In this document: piece by piece, positions 17,668 to 45,252 of the stretch | Numbering within the stretch: the first letter of the stretch is position 1 | Layout: every line of letters starts with the position of its first letter | DNA from: Deltaproteobacteria bacterium | GTDB taxonomy: Bacteria > Myxococcota > JACPTQ01 | Length of the DNA stretch: 64,000 nt | Direction of reading: 5' to 3' | Assembly: GCA_016192705.1 (NCBI GenBank) | Contig: JACPTQ010000014.1 | Coordinates: 15,503 to 79,502 of the forward strand | Notes under the pieces: model-generated | The model's database searches: none | The model's input: only the letters and a program-made list of their open reading frames with translations | Told to the model about the DNA's origin: nothing | Made by a program: the position numbers and the translations under genes

Positions 17668-17771
17668 CGTGAGCGTTGAACCCCGGGCCGGATACTCCCA
17701 TTCTTAGAGGTGAATGACAACAGCATCGTTTGGGGCGGGTTCAGCGACAAACCCTGATTCCCGGATAACGG

Positions 17772-18304
17772 GCAAGATTTTCGTGGGGCGGGCGGGATTT
17801 GGGCTTGCTCCGGCTCGCGGAAGTCCTCGGGTCTGACATGAAATGTGAGTCTCCACAGAATGAATCAAACATCATGAGAACGGCAATCCCACGCCCCATC
17901 GGCACCTCATCCCCTGCGCAAAGGTGCGCTGCGGGCTGCGCGGCACTGCCGCGACACCAAGTTCGGTCGAGCACAACCTGCATTTGCAACTCCGAGCACG
18001 CAAAGGTCTCGGGTGTTCCGTCGCCCTCGCGATTCTGTTCGCGTCGGCAAGCCACAGGCTTGCCAACGATTGCTCACAGAATACGCGACCCGGAGCAAGC
18101 CCAATCGCCGCCCGCCCAACCAGAATCCAGCTGTTTCCCTGGAGCGGCGGTTCAAGGACTTGGGGGTCGATCGAACGCTGGCCGACACCCAACGGGTGAA
18201 ACCTTCGTACCGCCCTCAAACCTAAAGAATACGTCCCCGGAAAGCGGCACCTGCCGACGCTACGCGCGGAAGATGACTGGTCGCTTAACCGGGGATCGAG
18301 GCGA
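17772..18304. mobile_element. MITE-like interspersed repeat, copy A (non-coding, mosaic)
   Basis: About 145 bp shares near-identity with 21019-21163 and 44524-44670. Imperfect terminal inverted repeat (left ..TTCCCGGATAACGG.., right ..CTTAACCGGGGA). Flanked by a perfect 11-bp direct repeat TCAGCGACAAA at 17761-17771 and 18305-18315. No conserved reading frame among copies. Confidence 0.7.
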
Positions 18305-21001
18305 TCAGCGACAAAGGCTCGCCCAAGTGGTCGAGTTGCCCACACTCCAAACGACGACGACGTTGCCGAAGGGATCGATGGCCATGGACGGAAAGAGCGC
18401 GCTTCCCGCGTCAGGGTTCGGGATGTCAACGGTACCCGCGTCGTCCCATCGGCCGCTACCTTCGGTGTCGAGGATGTACGATGAAATGAGAATGCGCCCC
18501 AATCCAGCGATCGTCTCGCTCCAGAGGATCGTCGCGCGCCCCGTTGGGGAGGTTGCGAGGGAGAGCGACTGCGAGGAAATCCCGGATGCCGTGTGGATTG
18601 TCGTGCTCGGTCCCCATCCCGCATCGATGAATGACGCGGAGCCGACGACTGAATAGTTCGGCGAGAAGAAGTTCGCTATCCATGCCACATGGATGCTGCC
18701 GTTCGGGGTCGCAGCGGCCGCCGTGTCGTAGAGGAGTCCACCGTCGGTCGACGCGACGGGGCCGGCGTCGCCCCAACCCGCGTCGGGTTCGAATCGGTTG
18801 CTTTCCACAAGCTGGCCACCGACATCGCTAAAAAACACCGCGACATTCCCGTCAGGGTCGCCGGCTGCCGAGACGGCGCCCGCGGGCGCAGTATTCCCAT
18901 CGATCCACAGCTCGCCTTGCCATCCCTGGCCAGGAACGTAACGATTTGCCCATATCTGATCGCTTGGGCCCGAGCGCGACCCAATGACCATTGTGTTCCC
19001 GGCTGAATCAACGACCGGTTTTATCACGTTGAGATTGCTCACGGCGGCGTCGGTCAGCGTTACGGGCGCGCTCCATCCAGCGTCGGGGTCAAATCGCGCG
19101 GCGCGCGAAACCTTGGGCATCGCCTTTGCCCAAACCGCGGTCACGCGCCCCCAGCCGTCGACAACGACTTTGGGCGCCTGCCCGTTTTCGAGCGAATCGG
19201 AGATCATGACGGGCGATGCGGTTGTCCAGCCGCCGTCGGGCGCGATTCGGATCGACCACACTTCGTTGAGGGCTCCAAACAGGCGGACGATCGTTGCATA
19301 ACCCGCGGAGTCGATCGCGACGACGGGGTTTCGTTGCACCTCGCCGCTCGGCTCAAGAATCTCCGGCGTTCGCCACCCCGCGGGCCAGCCGTCCGACGCG
19401 ACGTACCGCGCGGTCACGATCTTGTGAGTCCCCCCGGGCTCCGTGAGCTCCCATGCGACGAGCGCGTCGCCGTTTGGTCCCGTTGCGACTTGTGGTGCCG
19501 ACGATACGCTCCCATCGAGCGCGCTCGGCAGCGCAACCGGCGTTTCGCATCGAAGGCTTGACGAGGGCGTCGCGCTAACCGCGGTGCAAAATGGGCCAAC
19601 CCCGGCGTCGTTCGCCGCGCGCACAGCATAGAAGTACGGCTGACCGTTCGTCAGGCCCGTGTCGTTATACAAAGTCGAGGCGGAGGCATCGAGCGATGTG
19701 AACGGTCCGCCGGCATCGACCGCCCGATGGACTTCGTACGATGTTGCACCGATTGTCGCGAGCCACGTGAGCGAGACGCGCGCGTCTGATGGCGTCGCGA
19801 CGAGACCCGCTGGCGCCGCAGGAACCGTGAGCCGCGATGCCTCGGCCGATGCTGGCCCTTCACCTGAGCTGTTTGACGCGCGAACGATGTAGGTGTTCGT
19901 GACGCCCGGTGAACCGTTTGGGTCTGAAAAAACTGGCAAAATCGTGGTCCCGGCGTCAACGAAGACGCCACCATCTGCGTCCCGTCGATAAATGGAATAC
20001 GATGTCGCGGAAACCGATGCGTCCCACGTAAGTCCAACCAACGGATTGCCTCCCGTCGTGACGAGGTCGGTCGGCGCTGGCGGCCGCGTGAGAGCAACGA
20101 CTTCATTTGAGAACAGCCCCTCGCCTCCATCGTTTACGGCCATCACAACATAGAAATAGGAAGATCCCGCGATTAGGCCGGTGTCTGTGAACGTCGGTGC
20201 GCTTGTCGCGCCACGCTGAGCGTAAGGCTCGCCCGACACGATATTTCGGTAGACGACGTAGCTTGTCGCGCTGACCGAGGCGTCCCAAGATAACGCGATC
20301 GATGTATCGCCGCCCGCGGCGATAATTCCGGACGGTGCGGCGGGCCGCGTGAGCACTTGCGCTTCCAACGAATTCGGTCCCGCGCCCGTCGCGTTTTGCG
20401 CGCGCACGACATAGTAGTACCAAGTCCCGGGAGCGAACGATGTGTCCGAAAAGACTGTCGTTGATGCGTCGCCGATGTCGACCGGAGCCGCTGGATAAAC
20501 GCCGCGCGCGACAACGTACGACGTCGCGGACCAAGCCGTCGTCCAATTGATGCTGACCGATGTCGGATTAGCGATGGCCGAAAAAACCGTGGGTGCCGCG
20601 GGGAGCGTGAGGGCACTTGCTTCGACGGAGTTGTCGCTCCGTCCCGCGGGCGAAAGTGCGGCGACGACGTAGTAGTAAGTTGTGCCAGCCGCGAGCCCAG
20701 AGTCGCTGTACTCGGTTTGTGTCGGCGCCGCGATCTGCGTGTAGGGTCCGCCCGCAGCGGTCGCGCGCATGACCGCGTACCCCGTCGCGCTCGAGACGGC
20801 GTTCCACACAAGTTCGACCATGTTGAGGCTTCCCATGGCCGCGAGCCAATTTGGACCCGGCCCCGTTGTTCCTCCATCGGTCGCAATCCCACTGTCCGCG
20901 CCGGTTTGCGAGCCTTCCTTAAAGGGCGAAGTCCGAATACACGACGTGCCGATGGCAGCCATGACGGCCACAACCACGACCGGTCGAACGCGGATCGTCA
21001 T
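18305..21001 (-). CDS. secreted protein with tandem fibronectin type III-like repeats
   Basis: Signal peptide (MTIRVRPVVVVAVMAAIGTSC), at least 5 repeats of about 90 aa with recurring SATSY.V.R / Y.Y.V.A motifs typical of FN3, then a Trp/Gly-rich C-terminal region. Confidence 0.55.
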   Translation of the reverse strand: MTIRVRPVVVVAVMAAIGTSCIRTSPFKEGSQTGADSGIATDGGTTGPGPNWLAAMGSLNMVELVWNAVSSATGYAVMRATAAGGPYTQIAAPTQTEYSDSGLAAGTTYYYVVAALSPAGRSDNSVEASALTLPAAPTVFSAIANPTSVSINWTTAWSATSYVVARGVYPAAPVDIGDASTTVFSDTSFAPGTWYYYVVRAQNATGAGPNSLEAQVLTRPAAPSGIIAAGGDTSIALSWDASVSATSYVVYRNIVSGEPYAQRGATSAPTFTDTGLIAGSSYFYVVMAVNDGGEGLFSNEVVALTRPPAPTDLVTTGGNPLVGLTWDASVSATSYSIYRRDADGGVFVDAGTTILPVFSDPNGSPGVTNTYIVRASNSSGEGPASAEASRLTVPAAPAGLVATPSDARVSLTWLATIGATSYEVHRAVDAGGPFTSLDASASTLYNDTGLTNGQPYFYAVRAANDAGVGPFCTAVSATPSSSLRCETPVALPSALDGSVSSAPQVATGPNGDALVAWELTEPGGTHKIVTARYVASDGWPAGWRTPEILEPSGEVQRNPVVAIDSAGYATIVRLFGALNEVWSIRIAPDGGWTTASPVMISDSLENGQAPKVVVDGWGRVTAVWAKAMPKVSRAARFDPDAGWSAPVTLTDAAVSNLNVIKPVVDSAGNTMVIGSRSGPSDQIWANRYVPGQGWQGELWIDGNTAPAGAVSAAGDPDGNVAVFFSDVGGQLVESNRFEPDAGWGDAGPVASTDGGLLYDTAAAATPNGSIHVAWIANFFSPNYSVVGSASFIDAGWGPSTTIHTASGISSQSLSLATSPTGRATILWSETIAGLGRILISSYILDTEGSGRWDDAGTVDIPNPDAGSALFPSMAIDPFGNVVVVWSVGNSTTWASLCR

Positions 21002-21018
21002 ATCAACATTATATATAG

Positions 21019-21373
21019 CCTGATTCCCGGTTAACGGCCGAGACCTGCGTGGGGCGGTCGGGTTTGGGCTCGCTCCGGCTCGCAAAAGTCCTCGGGTCTG
21101 ACATTAAATGTGAGTCTGCACGAAACGAATCAAACGTCACGAGAACGGCAATCCCACGCCCCATCGGCACCTCATCCCCTGCGGATGCGAGCCTTTGCGT
21201 GCCCAATCTCCGCCCGCCCAATTAGGACTCGGCCGTTTTCCTGGAACGGCGCTTACGATACTTGGGGGTCGATCGATCGTCAGCCGACACCGAGCGGGTG
21301 AACTCTTTGTACCGCCCCCAAGCCCAGACCCCGCCCGTCCCACGCAAATCTTGCCCGTTATCCGGGAATCAGG
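21019..21373. mobile_element. MITE-like interspersed repeat, copy B (two inverted copies of the left module)
   Basis: Left end 21019-21062 and right end 21330-21373 are about 40-bp near-perfect inverted repeats (CCTGATTCCCGGTTAACGGCC.. / ..GCCCGTTATCCGGGAATCAGG). Core shared with copies A and C. Lies between divergent FN3 and OM-barrel genes. Confidence 0.7.
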
Positions 21374-21450
21374 GCGTTTACGGACCCCCCGGCGATGCGG
21401 TATCGTCCGCGAGCAGATTTCGACGCAGGTTTGAGAGGAGGGTGCATTTG

Positions 21451-22914
21451 ATGCGGCACACGCGATGGGTCGGGCTCTCTGTTGTTGTCTTGGGTTTCGC
21501 GCAGAGCGCGGGCGCGAGCGACATGTACTACCAAGACTTTTTGTTTGGCGAACGCGCAACCGGGATGGGCGGCGCGTTTACCGGGCTCGCGAACGACCCG
21601 GCCGCAGCGTATTACAACCCGGCTGGCCTCGCCTTTGAGCTCGACCAATATTTGTCGGGGAGTCTCAACTTTTTCAATTTTGACAAAGTGACGATGAAAG
21701 ACGGGATGCGGCTCGGGACGGTTTCACAAACGCTCGAGTCGGCGCCCGTCGCGCCTTTCCCGTCGGCTGGGTTCATTCCCGCCGAGTGGCGCGGCAACTA
21801 CTTCGCGTTCACGACGGTTGTGCCGCACCTCACGCGACGCAGCTTTTCGGGGTCGCTCGAAAGCGGCGCTCAGAAGCTGAACACGTCGCTCTCGGAGGAA
21901 GACACGACCGTGTGGATTGGCGGGACCTACGCGCGACGACTTGGGAAAAAATTCGCGATGGGTGCGTCGATCCTATACGGGACCCGAACTTACTCGCGCG
22001 TGCGCGACGACACGGCGGTCACGACCAACACGAACGCGGCGACGTCGGGCACCGCGGAGATTGAAAGCCAACGCATCGAGACGTTTCGGACGGGGTTTGA
22101 CGTCAAGCAGCTCGTGATTCGGCTCGGCTTTTTGATCTTGCCGACGCCGCAGCTTCGCATCGGTCTCTTGCTCGGGATTCCGTCGATCACGATCAGCGGA
22201 AGCGGGTCGCGCTCGTGGCGGTCGGCGCTCATCAACATCGATAGTTCGCCCGTCGTGATTGGCCCGGGCGATACGCGCGCAACCGTGATTTCGGCGCAGT
22301 ACAAGACTTTTGAGAAAGGGCTCGACGCCGAGTCGAAACGGCCGTTCGAGGCGCGGCTTGGGATTTCGTATGCTTTTACGCCGCGACTGACGGTTGCGGC
22401 CGACGTCTCGATTCACTTGCCAACCGAGTATCTGCGGATGCCGAGCGCGACGATCCCGGGCTCGCCCGAAGATCCAAACGACCACGAGTTCGTCAATAAT
22501 GTGACGAGAAACTTTGTCCACAACTACAACCTTGGTTTCGAGTGGTACATCGGCGGTCGCGTCCCGCTTAGGCTTGGCGCGTTTACGAATTTTTCGTCGG
22601 CGCCGGAAATCCCCGCGAACCCGACGGAGGCGTATTTGTCGCAAATTCACTTGATGGGCTTTACGGGAAGCATCGGCTACACGGGCGAACGCGGGAGCAT
22701 CAACGTTGGGTTCATGTATGTCGCGGGGAACGGCTACGGGATTATTTATGACAACGCGGCGTTGCGTCGCGTCGAAATTGGGCAGCGGTCGATTCAGATT
22801 TTCGTGTCGGGCGGTATCAGCTTCTTGTCGGAGAATGTGAAGGGGCTCTTCATCAAGAGGCGAAAGCCGTCGCGTGATGAACAGATTAAAGAGGAGGTTC
22901 CATGGCGCGAGTAG
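21451..22914 (+). CDS. outer-membrane beta-barrel protein, FadL/OmpP1-like (putative hydrophobic-compound transporter)
   Basis: Signal peptide (MRHTRWVGLSVVVLGFAQSAGA) followed by LFGERATGMGGAFTGLANDPAAAYYNPAGLAF, resembling the FadL-family N-terminal signature; beta-strand-like periodicity. Confidence 0.5.
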   Translation: MRHTRWVGLSVVVLGFAQSAGASDMYYQDFLFGERATGMGGAFTGLANDPAAAYYNPAGLAFELDQYLSGSLNFFNFDKVTMKDGMRLGTVSQTLESAPVAPFPSAGFIPAEWRGNYFAFTTVVPHLTRRSFSGSLESGAQKLNTSLSEEDTTVWIGGTYARRLGKKFAMGASILYGTRTYSRVRDDTAVTTNTNAATSGTAEIESQRIETFRTGFDVKQLVIRLGFLILPTPQLRIGLLLGIPSITISGSGSRSWRSALINIDSSPVVIGPGDTRATVISAQYKTFEKGLDAESKRPFEARLGISYAFTPRLTVAADVSIHLPTEYLRMPSATIPGSPEDPNDHEFVNNVTRNFVHNYNLGFEWYIGGRVPLRLGAFTNFSSAPEIPANPTEAYLSQIHLMGFTGSIGYTGERGSINVGFMYVAGNGYGIIYDNAALRRVEIGQRSIQIFVSGGISFLSENVKGLFIKRRKPSRDEQIKEEVPWRE

Positions 22915-24692
22915 GCGCACTGTCGCTCGTCGTTATCGCCTGCTTCACGGCGCGCGCGGAGGCGGCCGTCGAAATCATGAAGGAAGCCGACGTTAAGCCC
23001 GGAATGAAGGGGTACGGGCTGTCGGTTTTTAAGGGCGGCGCGATCGAGCGGTTTGATGTCGAGGTGATAGGGACGCTCAAGAACGTCATGCCGAAGCACA
23101 GCATCATCTTGGTGCGATGCGCGGGGCAGGGGCTTGAGCGTACGGGGATCATCGCGGGAATGAGCGGGAGTCCCGTTTATATCGATGGGAAGCTCATCGG
23201 CGCAATCGCGTATGGGTGGGGGTTTTCGAAGGACCCTGTGGGCGGCGTGACGCCGATCGAGGCGATGCTTGAGGAGGGGCGGCGGCCGCTGCACGGCGAG
23301 TTGGCGAGGAGAGGGAATAAACGCAAAGACGCAAAGACGCAGAGCGAAGAGATTTCTGTCATTGCCCCTTCGCGCCTTGGCGACTTTGCGTTGAATCAGG
23401 CTGCCGTGGACGGCGCGATTCGGCCGCTTGCGACGCCCGTGGTGATGGCTGGCTTTGATCCGCGGGTTGTTGAGCGGCTGCGACCGGAGCTTGCGAATTT
23501 TGGGATGATGCCGGCGCAAGGCGCGGGCGGAGGGCCGATGGCAGCACCAGGAGGCGCGGCGCTCGATTTGACGCCAGGCGCGGCGATCGGTGTTCAGCTG
23601 ATGCGCGGCGACCTGAACATGACAGGCGTTGGGACGGTGACGCACCGCGATGGCAATCGCGTACTCGCGTTTGGGCACCCGATGTTCGGGCTCGGCGAGC
23701 AGTACATGCCGATCACGACCGCATGGGTTCACCACGTCTTTGCGGGGATGGCGCAGTCTTTCAAGATGGCGAGCCCCATCGATGTCGTCGGGTCGCTTAC
23801 GGGCGATCGGCAGCCGTGCATCGTCGGTGAGGTCGGGCGAAAGGTCGACACGATTCCGGTGACGGTCAACATCGCGCGCGCCGATGGAAGCTACAAGCGC
23901 ATTTACAAGGTCCAGGTGCTGAAGCACCGCCTCTTTTTTCCAGTTCTCGCACGGGCCGCGGTTGTGAGCGCCATGCTCGCCGCCGAGGGCGACCTTGCGG
24001 AAGCGACTTACTCGATGGGCGTCACCATCAAGATGAAGGGGCGCGAGCCGCTCAAACTCAAGACCGACATTTTTAGCCCGATTGGTCTCTTCGACCCGCG
24101 GGCGATGTTTTTTGGGACGGGCGTGCTCGCGGTCTCGGCGCTCCTCAATAACCCCTTCGCACCCGTGGAAATCGAGTCGGTCACGCACGACATTTCGATC
24201 GCATTTAAGCGCGATTTCGCGATGATTGAATCGGTCTATCTCGCCGAGTGGGAAGTTGTTGAGGGCGGGACGGTCGATCTGTACGTCGTGCTTCGGCCAA
24301 TTCGCGGCGAGCCGTTTACGATCAAAGTGCCGGCGCGAATCCCCGATGGGCTGGGCGGACGGGACGCCGTGATTGAAGTCGCCGCGGGGCGCGAAACGCG
24401 GCCCGATCAGGCGCCGCCGCATACGCTCGACGACTTCATCCGCAACATTCGCGAAGAGTACGACGCGCGGACAATCGTCGCGACGGTCGGGCGGAACGCA
24501 TGGGGTGTGAAGATGCGGGGCGCGAAGCTTGAGCATTTGCCGCGAACGTTTCTTGAGGTGCTGACGCCGACGCAGACGGTCGTGGGCGGTGGCATGGTGT
24601 ACAACGACGTTGAAGTCACAAAGAAATCGATCGGGCGGCTGGTTTCTGGGCGCGCGCATTTGCGGGTGCGCGTGGTTGAGAGAAAGGACTGA
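22902..24692 (+). CDS. SpoIVB-like serine peptidase (peptidase S55 family), secreted
   Basis: Signal peptide; motif GIIAGMSGSPVYIDGKLIGAIAYGW closely resembles the S55 (SpoIVB) catalytic Ser region. Overlaps upstream OM barrel gene by 13 nt and downstream gene by 1 nt (TGATG). Confidence 0.65.
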   Translation: MARVGALSLVVIACFTARAEAAVEIMKEADVKPGMKGYGLSVFKGGAIERFDVEVIGTLKNVMPKHSIILVRCAGQGLERTGIIAGMSGSPVYIDGKLIGAIAYGWGFSKDPVGGVTPIEAMLEEGRRPLHGELARRGNKRKDAKTQSEEISVIAPSRLGDFALNQAAVDGAIRPLATPVVMAGFDPRVVERLRPELANFGMMPAQGAGGGPMAAPGGAALDLTPGAAIGVQLMRGDLNMTGVGTVTHRDGNRVLAFGHPMFGLGEQYMPITTAWVHHVFAGMAQSFKMASPIDVVGSLTGDRQPCIVGEVGRKVDTIPVTVNIARADGSYKRIYKVQVLKHRLFFPVLARAAVVSAMLAAEGDLAEATYSMGVTIKMKGREPLKLKTDIFSPIGLFDPRAMFFGTGVLAVSALLNNPFAPVEIESVTHDISIAFKRDFAMIESVYLAEWEVVEGGTVDLYVVLRPIRGEPFTIKVPARIPDGLGGRDAVIEVAAGRETRPDQAPPHTLDDFIRNIREEYDARTIVATVGRNAWGVKMRGAKLEHLPRTFLEVLTPTQTVVGGGMVYNDVEVTKKSIGRLVSGRAHLRVRVVERKD

Positions 24693-26863
24693 TGGCGATG
24701 AAGATGCGAGTGGGACGATGGGCGCGCGGGTTGGCGGTTTGCGCGATGGCGCTCGGTTTTGAGGCGGGGTCGGCGCTGGCGGTTTCGACGACCGAGTGGA
24801 AACTTGAGACGGCTGAGGGTTTTCGCGCGGGCAAGCTGGAGGGCGTCGCTGTTTCGTCGCTCGGAGAGGCGACGGCTGGCTTTCGTCTCAAGGGGCAAAA
24901 GACGACCGAGCAGCTCGTCTGGTGTCTCGCGCGCGCGACCAAGGAACTTGTCTATTTTGGTACGGCGTCAAACGGGCTCATTTACAAATGGGAAGCGGGG
25001 CGGCTTGCGGTCGCGCATAAGACGGGGCAAACAGCGGTGACGGCGCTGGTCGCGGATGGAGCGGGCGGCGTTTTTGCGGGGACGATTCCAAACGGGAAGA
25101 TTTACAAGGTTGCTGCGGACGGGACGTTGACCGAGTTTGCGAAGCTCGCCGTGAAATACATTTGGGCGCTGGCGTTCGATGCGGCGTCGCGGACGCTGTA
25201 CGTTGGAACGGGGCCCAAGGGGACGGTTTACAAGGTCGATGAGAGCGGGCGCGCGTCGATTTTGGCTGACACGAAGACGGAACACGTCTTGGCGCTCGAG
25301 CTTGATGCGTCGGGGCAGATCTACGCGGGGACGGCGCGAAACGGGCTGCTTTTAAAGATTTCGAAAGCGGGGAAGATGGTGGTTGTCGCGGATATTGGCG
25401 GCGACGAGGTGCGTGCGATTGCGCTTCACGGCGGGGCGATTTTCGCGGCGACGAATGGCAGTCAGCGCCGTGGGATGGTGCCGCCGGGGTTGCCGGTGTT
25501 TGGCGGGTCGTTCATCGCGGCGCCCATCGTGGTTCAACCTGCGGGCGTGGTCGGACGACCGGTCGGGGTGCCCGTCCCAGCGGCCTTTCCGCGCGACCCA
25601 GGGCAGGGGACGCTCTATCGAATCGAAGCTGAAGGGCGCGTCGAGACGCTCCTTCAGTTGCCGCGCGGTTTTTTTACCGCGATCGAAGTCGACCCCGATG
25701 GGAATGTCTACGTCGCCGTTGGCGAAGATGGGCGCGTCTATCGGGTGACGCCCGACAAGATTGTTCACACGGTTTTTGATTTGAAGGAGAAGCAGGTGCT
25801 GGCATTGTCGGTCACGGGGGCGGAGCCCAAGCTCCTCGCGACCGGAAACGCCGGGGCGGTGTACCAAGTTTCGGGTGGGCGCGCCCGAAACCCGCGGTTC
25901 ACGTCGCCGGTGTACGACGCGAAGTTCGTATCGCGTTGGGGTGTCGTCGATTATCGCGCGAGTGGGAAAATTACCATTCGCACGCGCAGTGGAAATACGC
26001 CGAAACCCGACACGACGTGGTCGGACTGGTCGGACGGCGCGAGCGATGCGGCGAAAGTGACGAGCCCGCCTGCGCGTTATTTGCAGTTGCGCGCGGAGTG
26101 GTCGGATCACGACGCGGTGCTCAGGCAGATTCGCGTTTTTGTGCTGAACCAAAATCAGCGCGCGCGGCTCACGGAGGTAACGGTCGATGGGGTTGGAGCG
26201 GTTTCGCCGCCCATCGTCCAGCCGGTTGGAATGCCCACAGGATACCCATCGCCCATGGTGCATCGCGCGCCAATGATGCCGTTCCAACACGCGATGCCGG
26301 GCGCGGCGCTTCCGCGGCGCAATCCCACGAAGCGGCTCGCGTGGAAGGCCGAGAACCACGACGGCGATCCGCTGGTTTATTCGGTCTATGTGCGCGAGGA
26401 GGCGTCGCAGAACTGGATTCACCTGACGCGCAAGGGACCCATCCACGAAACTTATTTCAGTTGGGACACGGAGTCGTTCCCCGACGGCTGGTACCGCGTC
26501 AAAGTGGTCGCGAGCGACGAGCGCGCGAATCCACCGCACCTTGTCTTGACGCACGAGTGGGTGACGCATTCGGTGCTCGTCGATAACCGCGAGCCGGACA
26601 TCGTCGATCTTGTTGTTGAGGGCGACCTAACGGTCCGTGGAATGGCGCGCGACAATTTCAGCACCATCAAGCGGCTCGAATACTCCCTCGACGGAGGCGA
26701 TTGGGTGCTCGTTTTCCCGGAGGGAGACCTTCACGACGGGACCGCGGTTCGGTTTAGATTCCGGTTGCCGAAGCCAGCGATGGGTGCGCATACGCTCCAT
26801 GTTCGCGCGATTGACGCCGGGAACAACATTGGCGTTGCGAGCCGGATTTTCACGATCAAATAG
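24692..26863 (+). CDS. secreted beta-propeller repeat protein (NHL/SMP-30-like blades)
   Basis: Signal peptide (MAMKMRVGRWARGLAVCAMALGFEAGSALA), recurring G(T/K)(I/V)YKV / GNVYVA blade motifs. Start coupled to S55 peptidase stop. Confidence 0.55.
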   Translation: MAMKMRVGRWARGLAVCAMALGFEAGSALAVSTTEWKLETAEGFRAGKLEGVAVSSLGEATAGFRLKGQKTTEQLVWCLARATKELVYFGTASNGLIYKWEAGRLAVAHKTGQTAVTALVADGAGGVFAGTIPNGKIYKVAADGTLTEFAKLAVKYIWALAFDAASRTLYVGTGPKGTVYKVDESGRASILADTKTEHVLALELDASGQIYAGTARNGLLLKISKAGKMVVVADIGGDEVRAIALHGGAIFAATNGSQRRGMVPPGLPVFGGSFIAAPIVVQPAGVVGRPVGVPVPAAFPRDPGQGTLYRIEAEGRVETLLQLPRGFFTAIEVDPDGNVYVAVGEDGRVYRVTPDKIVHTVFDLKEKQVLALSVTGAEPKLLATGNAGAVYQVSGGRARNPRFTSPVYDAKFVSRWGVVDYRASGKITIRTRSGNTPKPDTTWSDWSDGASDAAKVTSPPARYLQLRAEWSDHDAVLRQIRVFVLNQNQRARLTEVTVDGVGAVSPPIVQPVGMPTGYPSPMVHRAPMMPFQHAMPGAALPRRNPTKRLAWKAENHDGDPLVYSVYVREEASQNWIHLTRKGPIHETYFSWDTESFPDGWYRVKVVASDERANPPHLVLTHEWVTHSVLVDNREPDIVDLVVEGDLTVRGMARDNFSTIKRLEYSLDGGDWVLVFPEGDLHDGTAVRFRFRLPKPAMGAHTLHVRAIDAGNNIGVASRIFTIK

Positions 26864-44523: not shown

Positions 44524-45252
44524 GCCTGATTCCCGGTTAACGGCCAAGACCAGCGTGGGGCGGTCGGGGTTGGGCTCGCTCCGGCTCGCGAAAGTCCTCG
44601 GGTCTGACATGAAATGTGAGTCTGCACGAAATGAATCAAACATCATGAGAACGGCAATCCCACGCCCCATCGGAACCTCATCCCCTGCGGACGCGACCCG
44701 GAGCAAGCCCAATCCCCGCCCGCCCAACCAGAAACTGCCCGTTTCCCTGGAACGTCGGCTAGGAGACTTGGGGGTCGATCGATCGTCAGCAGACACCCAG
44801 CGGGTGAACTCTTCTAACCGCCCTCAAGCCCAGAAAACACGTCTCCGAAAAACGGTCCGCCCGGATTTGCGTAGGGTCGGCAGGGGCGCAGCGTAGGCGC
44901 GCCTATTCCGCGAGCAGTCTGTCGGCAAGCCAGCGGCTATTTCCGCTGCCTTCTGCGGATGCTCCAGTGCGAGCGGAATGGCAAGGGCGACGGAACACCC
45001 GAGATCTTTGTGTGCTCGGAGTTGCAAATGCCGGTTGTGCTCGACCGAACTTGGTGTCGCGGCAGTGCCGCGCAGCCCGCAGCCCGACCTTCGCGCAGGG
45101 TCAGAGGTGTCATGTATGCACGGATTTCCATTTATTCCCATGTTTTCATTTGAGCGACTTGCGAACGGATTGAGGGCCAGACCCGAGGACGTCGGCGCGC
45201 CGAAGCGGGCTCCTGTCGACCCTCGCGCTCACGAGCAAACGAACTGCTTAAC
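44524..45252. mobile_element. MITE-like interspersed repeat, copy C (mosaic)
   Basis: Left 145 bp near-identical to copies A and B. Contains in inverted orientation an ~85-bp module present in copy A (17940-18030). Flanked by a perfect 22-bp direct repeat CGGGGACGAGGCGCCTTGCGTT at 44502-44523 and 45253-45274. Confidence 0.7.

Follow-up and report, generated by a model that had tools for sequence, protein, structure and literature searches.

Organization of the locus

A 64,000-nucleotide (nt) stretch of contig JACPTQ010000014.1 (assembly GCA_016192705.1, positions 15,503 to 79,502), hereafter called the window, was analyzed from a metagenome-assembled genome (MAG) labelled Deltaproteobacteria bacterium. 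Within it lie three consecutive plus-strand genes, termed here g1, g2 and g3, of which g2 encodes a protein related to the S55 serine peptidase SpoIVB and g3 a predicted secreted beta-propeller protein. As described below, g2 and g3 form a conserved pair, and g2 appears to carry the two barrels of its peptidase core in the reverse of the usual order. The three genes, as taken from the open reading frame (ORF) list, are the following (aa, amino acids).

21451..22914, plus strand: g1, ATG start, 487 aa; predicted outer-membrane barrel protein of the FadL/TodX family with a signal peptide
22902..24692, plus strand: g2, 596 aa; predicted secreted, S55-related serine peptidase with an apparently permuted barrel order
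24692..26863, plus strand: g3, 723 aa, or 721 aa from the ATG at 24698; predicted propeller protein

The genes are tightly packed, with g1 and g2 overlapping by 13 nt. The start of g3 is ambiguous (24692-24700): from the ATG at 24692 it would overlap g2 by 1 nt (TGATG), and from the ATG at 24698, which has the better Shine-Dalgarno spacing and matches the 721-aa database version, a 5-nt gap would separate the two. Purine-rich Shine-Dalgarno sequences occur 5′ of g1 (GAGAGGAGGG), g2 (AAGAGGAGG) and g3 (GAGAAAGGA). A longer ORF for g1, from a TTG at 21262, was considered and judged unlikely. Read by eye, the N-termini of all three products carry one or more basic residues followed by a hydrophobic segment and a site of the AxA type, with putative cleavage at AGA|SD in g1, AEA|AV in g2 and ALA|VS in g3. 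Thus, the three overlapping plus-strand genes with signal peptides that a first-pass annotation of the sequence had described are indeed present, the g2/g3 overlap depending on the start chosen for g3. A scan for σ70 promoters and terminators returned none above chance. The NCBI records MBI3071127.1 and MBI3071128.1 (locus tags HYY84_03265 and HYY84_03270) are both annotated "hypothetical protein".

Conservation of the g2-g3 pair

Gene order around g2 was surveyed at 82 loci on contigs drawn from one genome per species, using a tblastn-anchored analysis. A g3 homologue occurs directly 3′ of g2, within 700 nt, in 62 of the 77 loci that were informative (at least 1.5 kb of downstream sequence), and these span more than 10 phyla; the g2 stop codon and the first aligned g3 residue are separated by a median of 57 nt. 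Carriers include Myxococcota, Planctomycetota (Scalindua, Kuenenia), Acidobacteriota, Verrucomicrobiota, Gemmatimonadota, Armatimonadota, Eisenbacteria and Spirochaetia, and there is a cultured g2 carrier, Sorangium sp. So ce513. In two further MAGs, of different phyla, the pair is a single uninterrupted ORF: one of 1,550 aa in a Fimbriimonadaceae MAG (L064, 5977-10629) and one of about 1,300 aa in a Candidatus Hebobacteria MAG (L079, 16-4050). Fusions of this kind are a "Rosetta-stone" hint of physical association between the two products. Because of the adjacency, the coupled translation and the fusions, g2 and g3 would be expected to work together, and the evidence argues for g3 acting either as a recruiting, gating or anchoring subunit or as a protein that g2 processes. 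No further neighbour is shared: a clustering of neighbours by longest ORF, although corrupted by antisense ORFs in high-GC DNA and since replaced by the tblastn-anchored analysis, still put the recurrence of any third gene at about 12 loci at most.

The first-pass annotation had presented all three genes as one module and pointed to conservation of their order; that expectation stands for g2-g3 and fails for g1. At none of the 82 loci did a g1 homologue lie within about 6 kb of g2, nor was one seen near g2 in five more relatives whose g2 is approximately 40% identical (L083-L085, L090 and one other), and these nearest relatives keep the g2-g3 adjacency without g1. The trio order was found only in one close relative, on a 2.3-kb contig where g2 is 88% identical, g3 is 81% identical and a fragment upstream of g2 matches the g1 C-terminus at 62% identity; a 57-nt gap takes the place of the g1/g2 overlap seen here. 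As judged from gene order, the conserved unit is g2 with g3 and not the trio, and the FadL-type barrel gene is seemingly a recent, lineage-restricted addition to the operon.

The identity of the g1 product as a FadL-like barrel, also proposed earlier, was upheld once its relatives were brought in. By itself, g1 scores 19.5 bits against Pfam Toluene_X (PF03349), under the cut-off of 29.7. An exhaustive HMMER search gathered relatives in 1,579 representative clusters, 30 of which were used for a profile, and this profile matches 3dwo, the structure of a FadL homologue of P. aeruginosa, over approximately 360 residues (E 3.4e-8, residues 46-409), as well as CymD and TodX. Moreover, 21 of the 30 relatives match Toluene_X at E<=0.01 (best 1.1e-9). 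By these sequence comparisons, g1 is assigned to the FadL/TodX family of outer-membrane barrels, from which it differs in the charged C-terminal tail, some 30 residues long, that extends past the last predicted strand. A reading of g1 as PorV/PorQ of the type IX secretion system (NCBIfam NF033709) was rejected, the match being confined to 33 N-terminal residues (35-67) at 42.2 bits against a cut-off of 90.

It is conceivable that the trio constitutes one outer-membrane machine, with the FadL-like barrel docking the protease-propeller complex or else exporting or importing its products. Such an arrangement would sit well with the 13-nt g1/g2 overlap, with the strong Shine-Dalgarno site of g2 and with the recurrence of the g1-g2-g3 order in the relative with the 88% identical g2. 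That same relative, however, has a gap in place of the overlap, and g1 is missing near g2 at all 82 loci and in the five relatives at about 40% identity. Furthermore, the closest relatives of g1 are stand-alone genes, found beside lipopolysaccharide-biosynthesis and MacB-type genes; one near relative shares its sample of origin with a g2-g3 pair, but the two lie on separate contigs. Since g1 is missing near g2 elsewhere and its relatives stand alone, its role would be lineage-specific at most, and a three-part machine is considered unlikely.

The serine half of g2

The g2 product divides into the parts below, delimited with an AlphaFold2 (AF2) model and its per-residue confidence (pLDDT), DSSP and conservation.

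22971..23291, plus strand: aa 24-130, serine barrel with terminal helix, equivalent of the SpoIVB C-terminal barrel
23292..23582, plus strand: aa 131-227, insert between the barrels
23583..23849, plus strand: aa 228-316, second six-stranded barrel, putative equivalent of the S55 N-terminal (histidine) barrel
23610-23612, 23676-23678, 23763-23765 and 23805-23807, plus strand: conserved residues D237, H259, K288 and D302 of the second barrel
23850..24689, plus strand: aa 317-596, C-terminal beta-rich domains (AF2 pLDDT mostly >90; conserved family-wide)

The first of these parts ties g2 to the S55 family. Its GMSGSP motif (aa 86-91, nt 23157-23174; Ser88 codon 23163-23165) lies in a region that scores 42.7 bits against Pfam S55 (PF05580; cut-off 25). 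In the SpoIVB structure 9lnf, its counterpart by alignment is the final stretch of ~110 residues, placing GMSGSP on the catalytic-serine motif and Ser88 on position 378 (SpoIVB Ser378). A profile-profile comparison of this half with 73 canonical SpoIVB proteins gave a probability of 99.4% and E 3.6e-21. The serine barrel of g2 is clearly homologous, by sequence, to the C-terminal, serine-bearing barrel of SpoIVB.

The remainder of the architecture departs from the canonical one. The Pfam match is limited to profile positions 105-201 of 210 and to g2 residues 18-115, right after the signal peptide. With nothing else in front of the serine half, a canonical histidine barrel cannot lie upstream, and the S55 order of His before Ser is not seen in g2. 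Full-length canonical S55 homologues carry a PDZ domain (PF17820, PF13180 or PF00595), and none was matched in g2 in Pfam and NCBIfam scans. The SpoIVB equivalog model TIGR02860 gave 40.2 bits, below its cut-off of 305.25. Consequently, of the earlier description of g2 as a SpoIVB-type S55 peptidase, the family membership and the alignment of the GMSGSP region to the S55 catalytic residues were confirmed, and the implied architecture was not: a PDZ domain is lacking, recognition is confined to the serine half, which is N-terminal, and the histidine-bearing half apparently comes after it, with approximately 280 extra residues beyond that. A lipoprotein reading of g2 (VIAC, aa 11-14) was ruled out, since homologues have no conserved Cys.

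A second barrel and the order of the putative active-site residues

At least 7,300 full-length relatives of g2 were counted, as clusters at 90% identity, and residue conservation was assessed in 86 sequences from loci of more than 10 phyla. A second conserved block stands out in the family alignment, PGxAIGVxLxRGDxxxxGxGTVTxxxGxxVLAFGHPMFGxGE, with an invariant Gly-His259 located 171 residues past Ser88. All 86 homologues share GMSGSP, G236-D237, T245, G258-H259, G265, S286, G297 and D302, and K288 is kept in 85. In the AF2 model (pLDDT 82.9, pTM 0.81), DSSP assigns a first six-stranded barrel plus helix to aa 36-126 and a second six-stranded barrel to aa 228-311. The insert between them comprises a disordered segment (aa 139-171) and a small beta-alpha-beta unit in which P179 and G184 are nearly invariant, and aa 317-596 gave no Pfam or NCBIfam match. 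One of the barrels aligns structurally to many clan PA proteases. In the second, H259 is modelled after strand 3 and D302 before strand 6, and in the chymotrypsin fold the strand 3 and strand 6 places hold His57 and Asp102.

The relation of this barrel to the N-terminal barrel of S55 was assessed by placing residues 220-316 before residues 24-130 in six family members. In five of the six, the re-ordered sequence gave one Pfam S55 stretch over profile positions 12-202, compared with 114-202 only in the native order, with a score gain of 1.3-4.4 bits. Similarly, a re-ordered 15-sequence g2 profile aligns to 9lnf (chain residues 119-319; E 2.7e-13, 53 bits), with the g2 FGHP motif opposite the LGHV of SpoIVB (His236). 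When the histidine half was compared with an N-barrel profile of 73 canonical sequences in hhalign, 23-24 columns around GxGT...GH matched at E 0.0056 (0.013 in an earlier run), and the score exceeded those of 30 out of 30 column-shuffled controls. Other comparisons of this half were negative: none of three sequences matched in a Pfam scan of the half alone, one reaching E 0.043; hhalign against a single SpoIVB sequence returned a different and insignificant alignment; and its global mode returned nothing against the canonical profile. Because the match to the canonical profile extends to 23-24 columns only, sequence alone does not prove the permutation. Nevertheless, g2 is most economically read as having a circularly permuted S55 core, and on the sequence comparisons and the model this reading is quite likely correct.

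The conserved residues of the family also bear on SpoIVB itself. The third catalytic residue of that protease was placed at Asp363 by mutagenesis, an assignment disputed by the crystal structure, which proposes Thr393 (PMC12502668). Neither candidate is conserved in the g2 family: the column of Asp363 holds G, H or D, with D in 9 of the 86 sequences and Gly75 in g2 (23124-23126), and that of Thr393 holds A or S (g2 aa 103, 23208-23210). By comparison with the 73 canonical SpoIVB proteins, the equivalents of SpoIVB Asp213 and Lys273, namely D237 and K288, are invariant or nearly so.

Two further observations concern this lysine. Its counterpart in SpoIVB, by alignment, is the Lys of the conserved PGEK motif, and it forms part of a Ser286-x-Lys288 arrangement in the second barrel (SFK, 23757-23765) that recalls Ser/Lys dyads.

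Another possibility is that g2 is no enzyme at all and instead represents a half-protease remnant or a pseudoprotease binding module, with a downstream barrel that has no kinship with the protease fold. In favour of this, the significant S55 match covers just half of the profile, and non-catalytic chymotrypsin-fold domains do exist, the S1C domain of RsgI9 being among the structural matches of g2. Pseudoproteases, however, usually lose active-site residues. The absolute conservation of GMSGSP, Gly-His259 and two Asp residues across more than 10 phyla, at overall identities of ~30-40%, is instead the pattern of a working active site, and a non-enzymatic g2 is regarded as very improbable. The invariant Ser, His and Asp positions argue for an active enzyme, in which a permuted active site would be assembled from the two barrels.

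The predicted propeller partner

The following domains were assigned to g3.

24788..25882, plus strand: aa 33-397, propeller of approximately 7 blades (AF2 pLDDT ~95; Pfam SGL; Foldseek)
25889..26206, plus strand: aa 400-505, beta-sandwich with the most conserved motif of the family (AF2 model)
26327..26857, plus strand: aa 546-722, two immunoglobulin (Ig)-like domains (AF2 model; weak Big_7 and OmpL47-type matches)

The secreted beta-propeller predicted for g3 was borne out, as it scores 34.5 bits against Pfam SGL (PF08450; cut-off 26.3) and its AF2 model (pLDDT 86.7 overall) contains approximately seven four-stranded blades. Weaker profile matches were to Reg_prop, Big_7 and OmpL47-type domains. 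The conserved motif of the beta-sandwich reads TRSGNT..PD.TWSDWS...ARYLQ.RA. Two segments are disordered, a Pro/Val/Gly-rich insert in the propeller (aa 260-299) and a linker (aa 508-535). The best Foldseek matches of the model are periplasmic sensor domains of Bacteroides hybrid two-component systems (E ~1e-12), followed by generic propellers.

The disordered segments raise the alternative that g3 is a substrate or cargo, with g2 processing the propeller protein at these loops and, for example, releasing or activating the Ig-like and sandwich domains. Both segments are long in the model, and the family consensus keeps variable stretches at the same places; SpoIVB, moreover, cleaves both partner proteins and itself at specific sites (PMC12502668). 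The fusions fit a complex and processing in cis alike. A role for g3 purely as substrate is, on balance, rather unlikely.

Repeat copies and surrounding genes

The region 5′ of g1 is occupied by a repeat element, listed here as context and not shown to be part of the module.

21018..21374, no strand assigned: repeat copy B, filling the divergent intergenic region 5′ of g1

The element, of approximately 320-350 nt, occurs in three copies in the window, at 17752-18247 (A), 21018-21374 (B) and 44524-44855 (C), with 81-91% identity between blocks. Copy B is bounded by terminal inverted repeats, CCTGATTCCCGGTTAACGGCC ... GCCCGTTATCCGGGAATCAGGG, and copy A contains an insert of approximately 165 nt in which 44969-45083 is repeated in inverted orientation. 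Divergent intergenic regions are the setting of both copy B and copy C, and the trio lies directly 3′ of copy B, as had been noted at the outset. No Rfam family matched the element, and there were zero Rfam matches across the window. The element may be a miniature inverted-repeat transposable element (MITE)-like sequence or a shared regulatory region. A σ54-like motif within it (CTGGAACGGCGCTTAC) was dropped as a candidate, its -12 element being off consensus and variable between copies.

On the other side of copy B, the minus strand at 18305-21085 encodes a 926-aa protein divergent from g1. It would have a lipoprotein-like signal (…AIGTSC) if its start were near 21001, it contains several fibronectin type III repeats, and its long C-terminal part matches no family. 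The genes flanking the module in the window are unrelated housekeeping or regulatory genes.

A proposed secreted protease-partner module

Considering these findings, g2 and g3 could constitute a two-component proteolytic module, secreted to the periplasm or the surface, in many diderm phyla. In this model, g2 would be a serine endopeptidase from the S55 (SpoIVB) branch of the chymotrypsin-fold proteases, with the serine barrel (Ser88) first, the histidine barrel (His259) second and approximately 280 residues of beta domains thereafter. The acid residue would be one of two: Asp302, which matches chymotrypsin Asp102 in its position within the fold topology, or Asp237, which corresponds to the conserved Asp213 of SpoIVB. 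The g3 protein, made from the same transcript by coupled translation, would bind the protease and could supply what the PDZ domain gives SpoIVB, or what adaptors give envelope proteases, in the form of substrate recruitment, gating or anchoring. The FadL-type barrel gene, joined to the front of the operon in this lineage only, may point to the outer membrane as the place where the module acts here. The model is built on what was observed, namely the structure of the genes, their families, the invariant residues, the shared gene order and the fusions; from these we infer the permuted active site, the catalytic activity, the complex of g2 with g3 and the location of the module. As an explanation of the whole, a permuted protease with a binding partner seems to us the probable one, with moderate confidence, on the sequence and model evidence.

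Several points weigh against it. The hhalign match of the histidine half is weak, with a probability of 3-6%; the overall hhalign score stayed flat on re-ordering (119.8 versus 119.7); and Foldseek of g2 against the PDB returned no match with E <1e-3. The fusions occur in MAGs, where they can be assembly or frameshift artefacts. In addition, g2 occurs without an adjacent g3 in a Pyrinomonadaceae-centred clade and in L003; the acidobacterial loci without g3 are L071, L048, L057, L059, L066, L068, L073, L075, L076 and L081, and in L071 and the related Pyrinomonadaceae loci only small ORFs follow g2. As already mentioned, g3 could be a substrate and not a partner. Finally, a search of the literature turned up no study on the function of S55 proteins from outside the Firmicutes or of chymotrypsin-fold proteases with a permuted order.

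A broader version of the protease-partner proposal is more tentative. It holds that g2 is a natural circular permutation of a clan PA protease, with the order Ser...His...Asp in place of His...Asp...Ser, that it forms an obligate pair with the propeller/Ig partner, and that the pair is a previously unrecognised envelope system of more than 10 diderm phyla, with Asp237 and Lys288 (SpoIVB Asp213 and Lys273) pointing to the true third catalytic residue of SpoIVB.

If the proposal is true, thousands of proteins now named "SpoIVB peptidase S55 domain-containing" or "hypothetical" would belong to a distinct family with a rearranged core and a fixed partner. The g2 family spans ecologically important phyla of soil and water, including Myxococcota, Acidobacteriota, Planctomycetota (anammox bacteria included), Verrucomicrobiota and Gemmatimonadota. 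It would show that nature has permuted the barrel order in a chymotrypsin fold, would furnish a new envelope protease-adaptor pair to study, and comparisons within the family bear on which residues complete the SpoIVB active site. A link to sporulation-like signalling gains no support from the g2-g3 evidence, and such a role is unlikely because the carriers are non-Firmicute phyla.

Comparison with known systems

S55 matches are widespread in Acidobacteria (PMC8841776), and public databases already annotate S55-type matches in Gram-negative phyla. The mere presence of S55-type proteins in these phyla is therefore not new.

The nearest known system is SpoIVB (MEROPS S55, PF05580), the Bacillus sigma-K checkpoint protease. 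The serine barrel of g2, with GMSG(S/A)P and the helix that follows, is homologous to that of SpoIVB, and the other barrel shares the motif order (R)(G)D, GxGT, G-H, a conserved Lys and Gly. In contrast to SpoIVB, g2 lacks a PDZ domain, has its serine barrel before its putative histidine barrel and extends by approximately 280 C-terminal residues; it does not conserve the equivalents of Asp363 and Thr393 and fails the TIGR02860 model. It also has an obligate-looking propeller partner gene, and its carriers belong to non-sporulating diderm phyla. The HtrA, DegP and DegS proteases (S1C) are more distant, as g2 shows no significant sequence match to them and no PDZ domain, its barrel order differs and its partner is a separate protein.

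Much like the envelope protease-adaptor pairs Prc-NlpI and CtpA-LbcA and the propeller-gated peptidases tricorn and prolyl oligopeptidase, in which a repeat-protein partner or a propeller sets specificity or access, g2 and g3 may combine a secreted serine protease with a partner of this kind. In those systems, the protease folds are S41 and S9, and the adaptors are tetratricopeptide-repeat lipoproteins or propellers fused in cis. Their folds differ from that of g2. The likeness is one of concept, offered as an analogy with no claim of homology.

For g3, the closest resemblance is to BT4663 and BT4673, hybrid two-component sensors of Bacteroides in which a Reg_prop-type propeller is likewise followed by Ig-like domains. 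Unlike them, g3 has one propeller and not two and carries no transmembrane or kinase part; TM-scores of 0.2-0.3 limit the resemblance to domain types only. Set beside these systems, g2-g3 is best described as an architectural variant of a known protease family, accompanied by a conserved partner, for which the mechanism outlined above is proposed.

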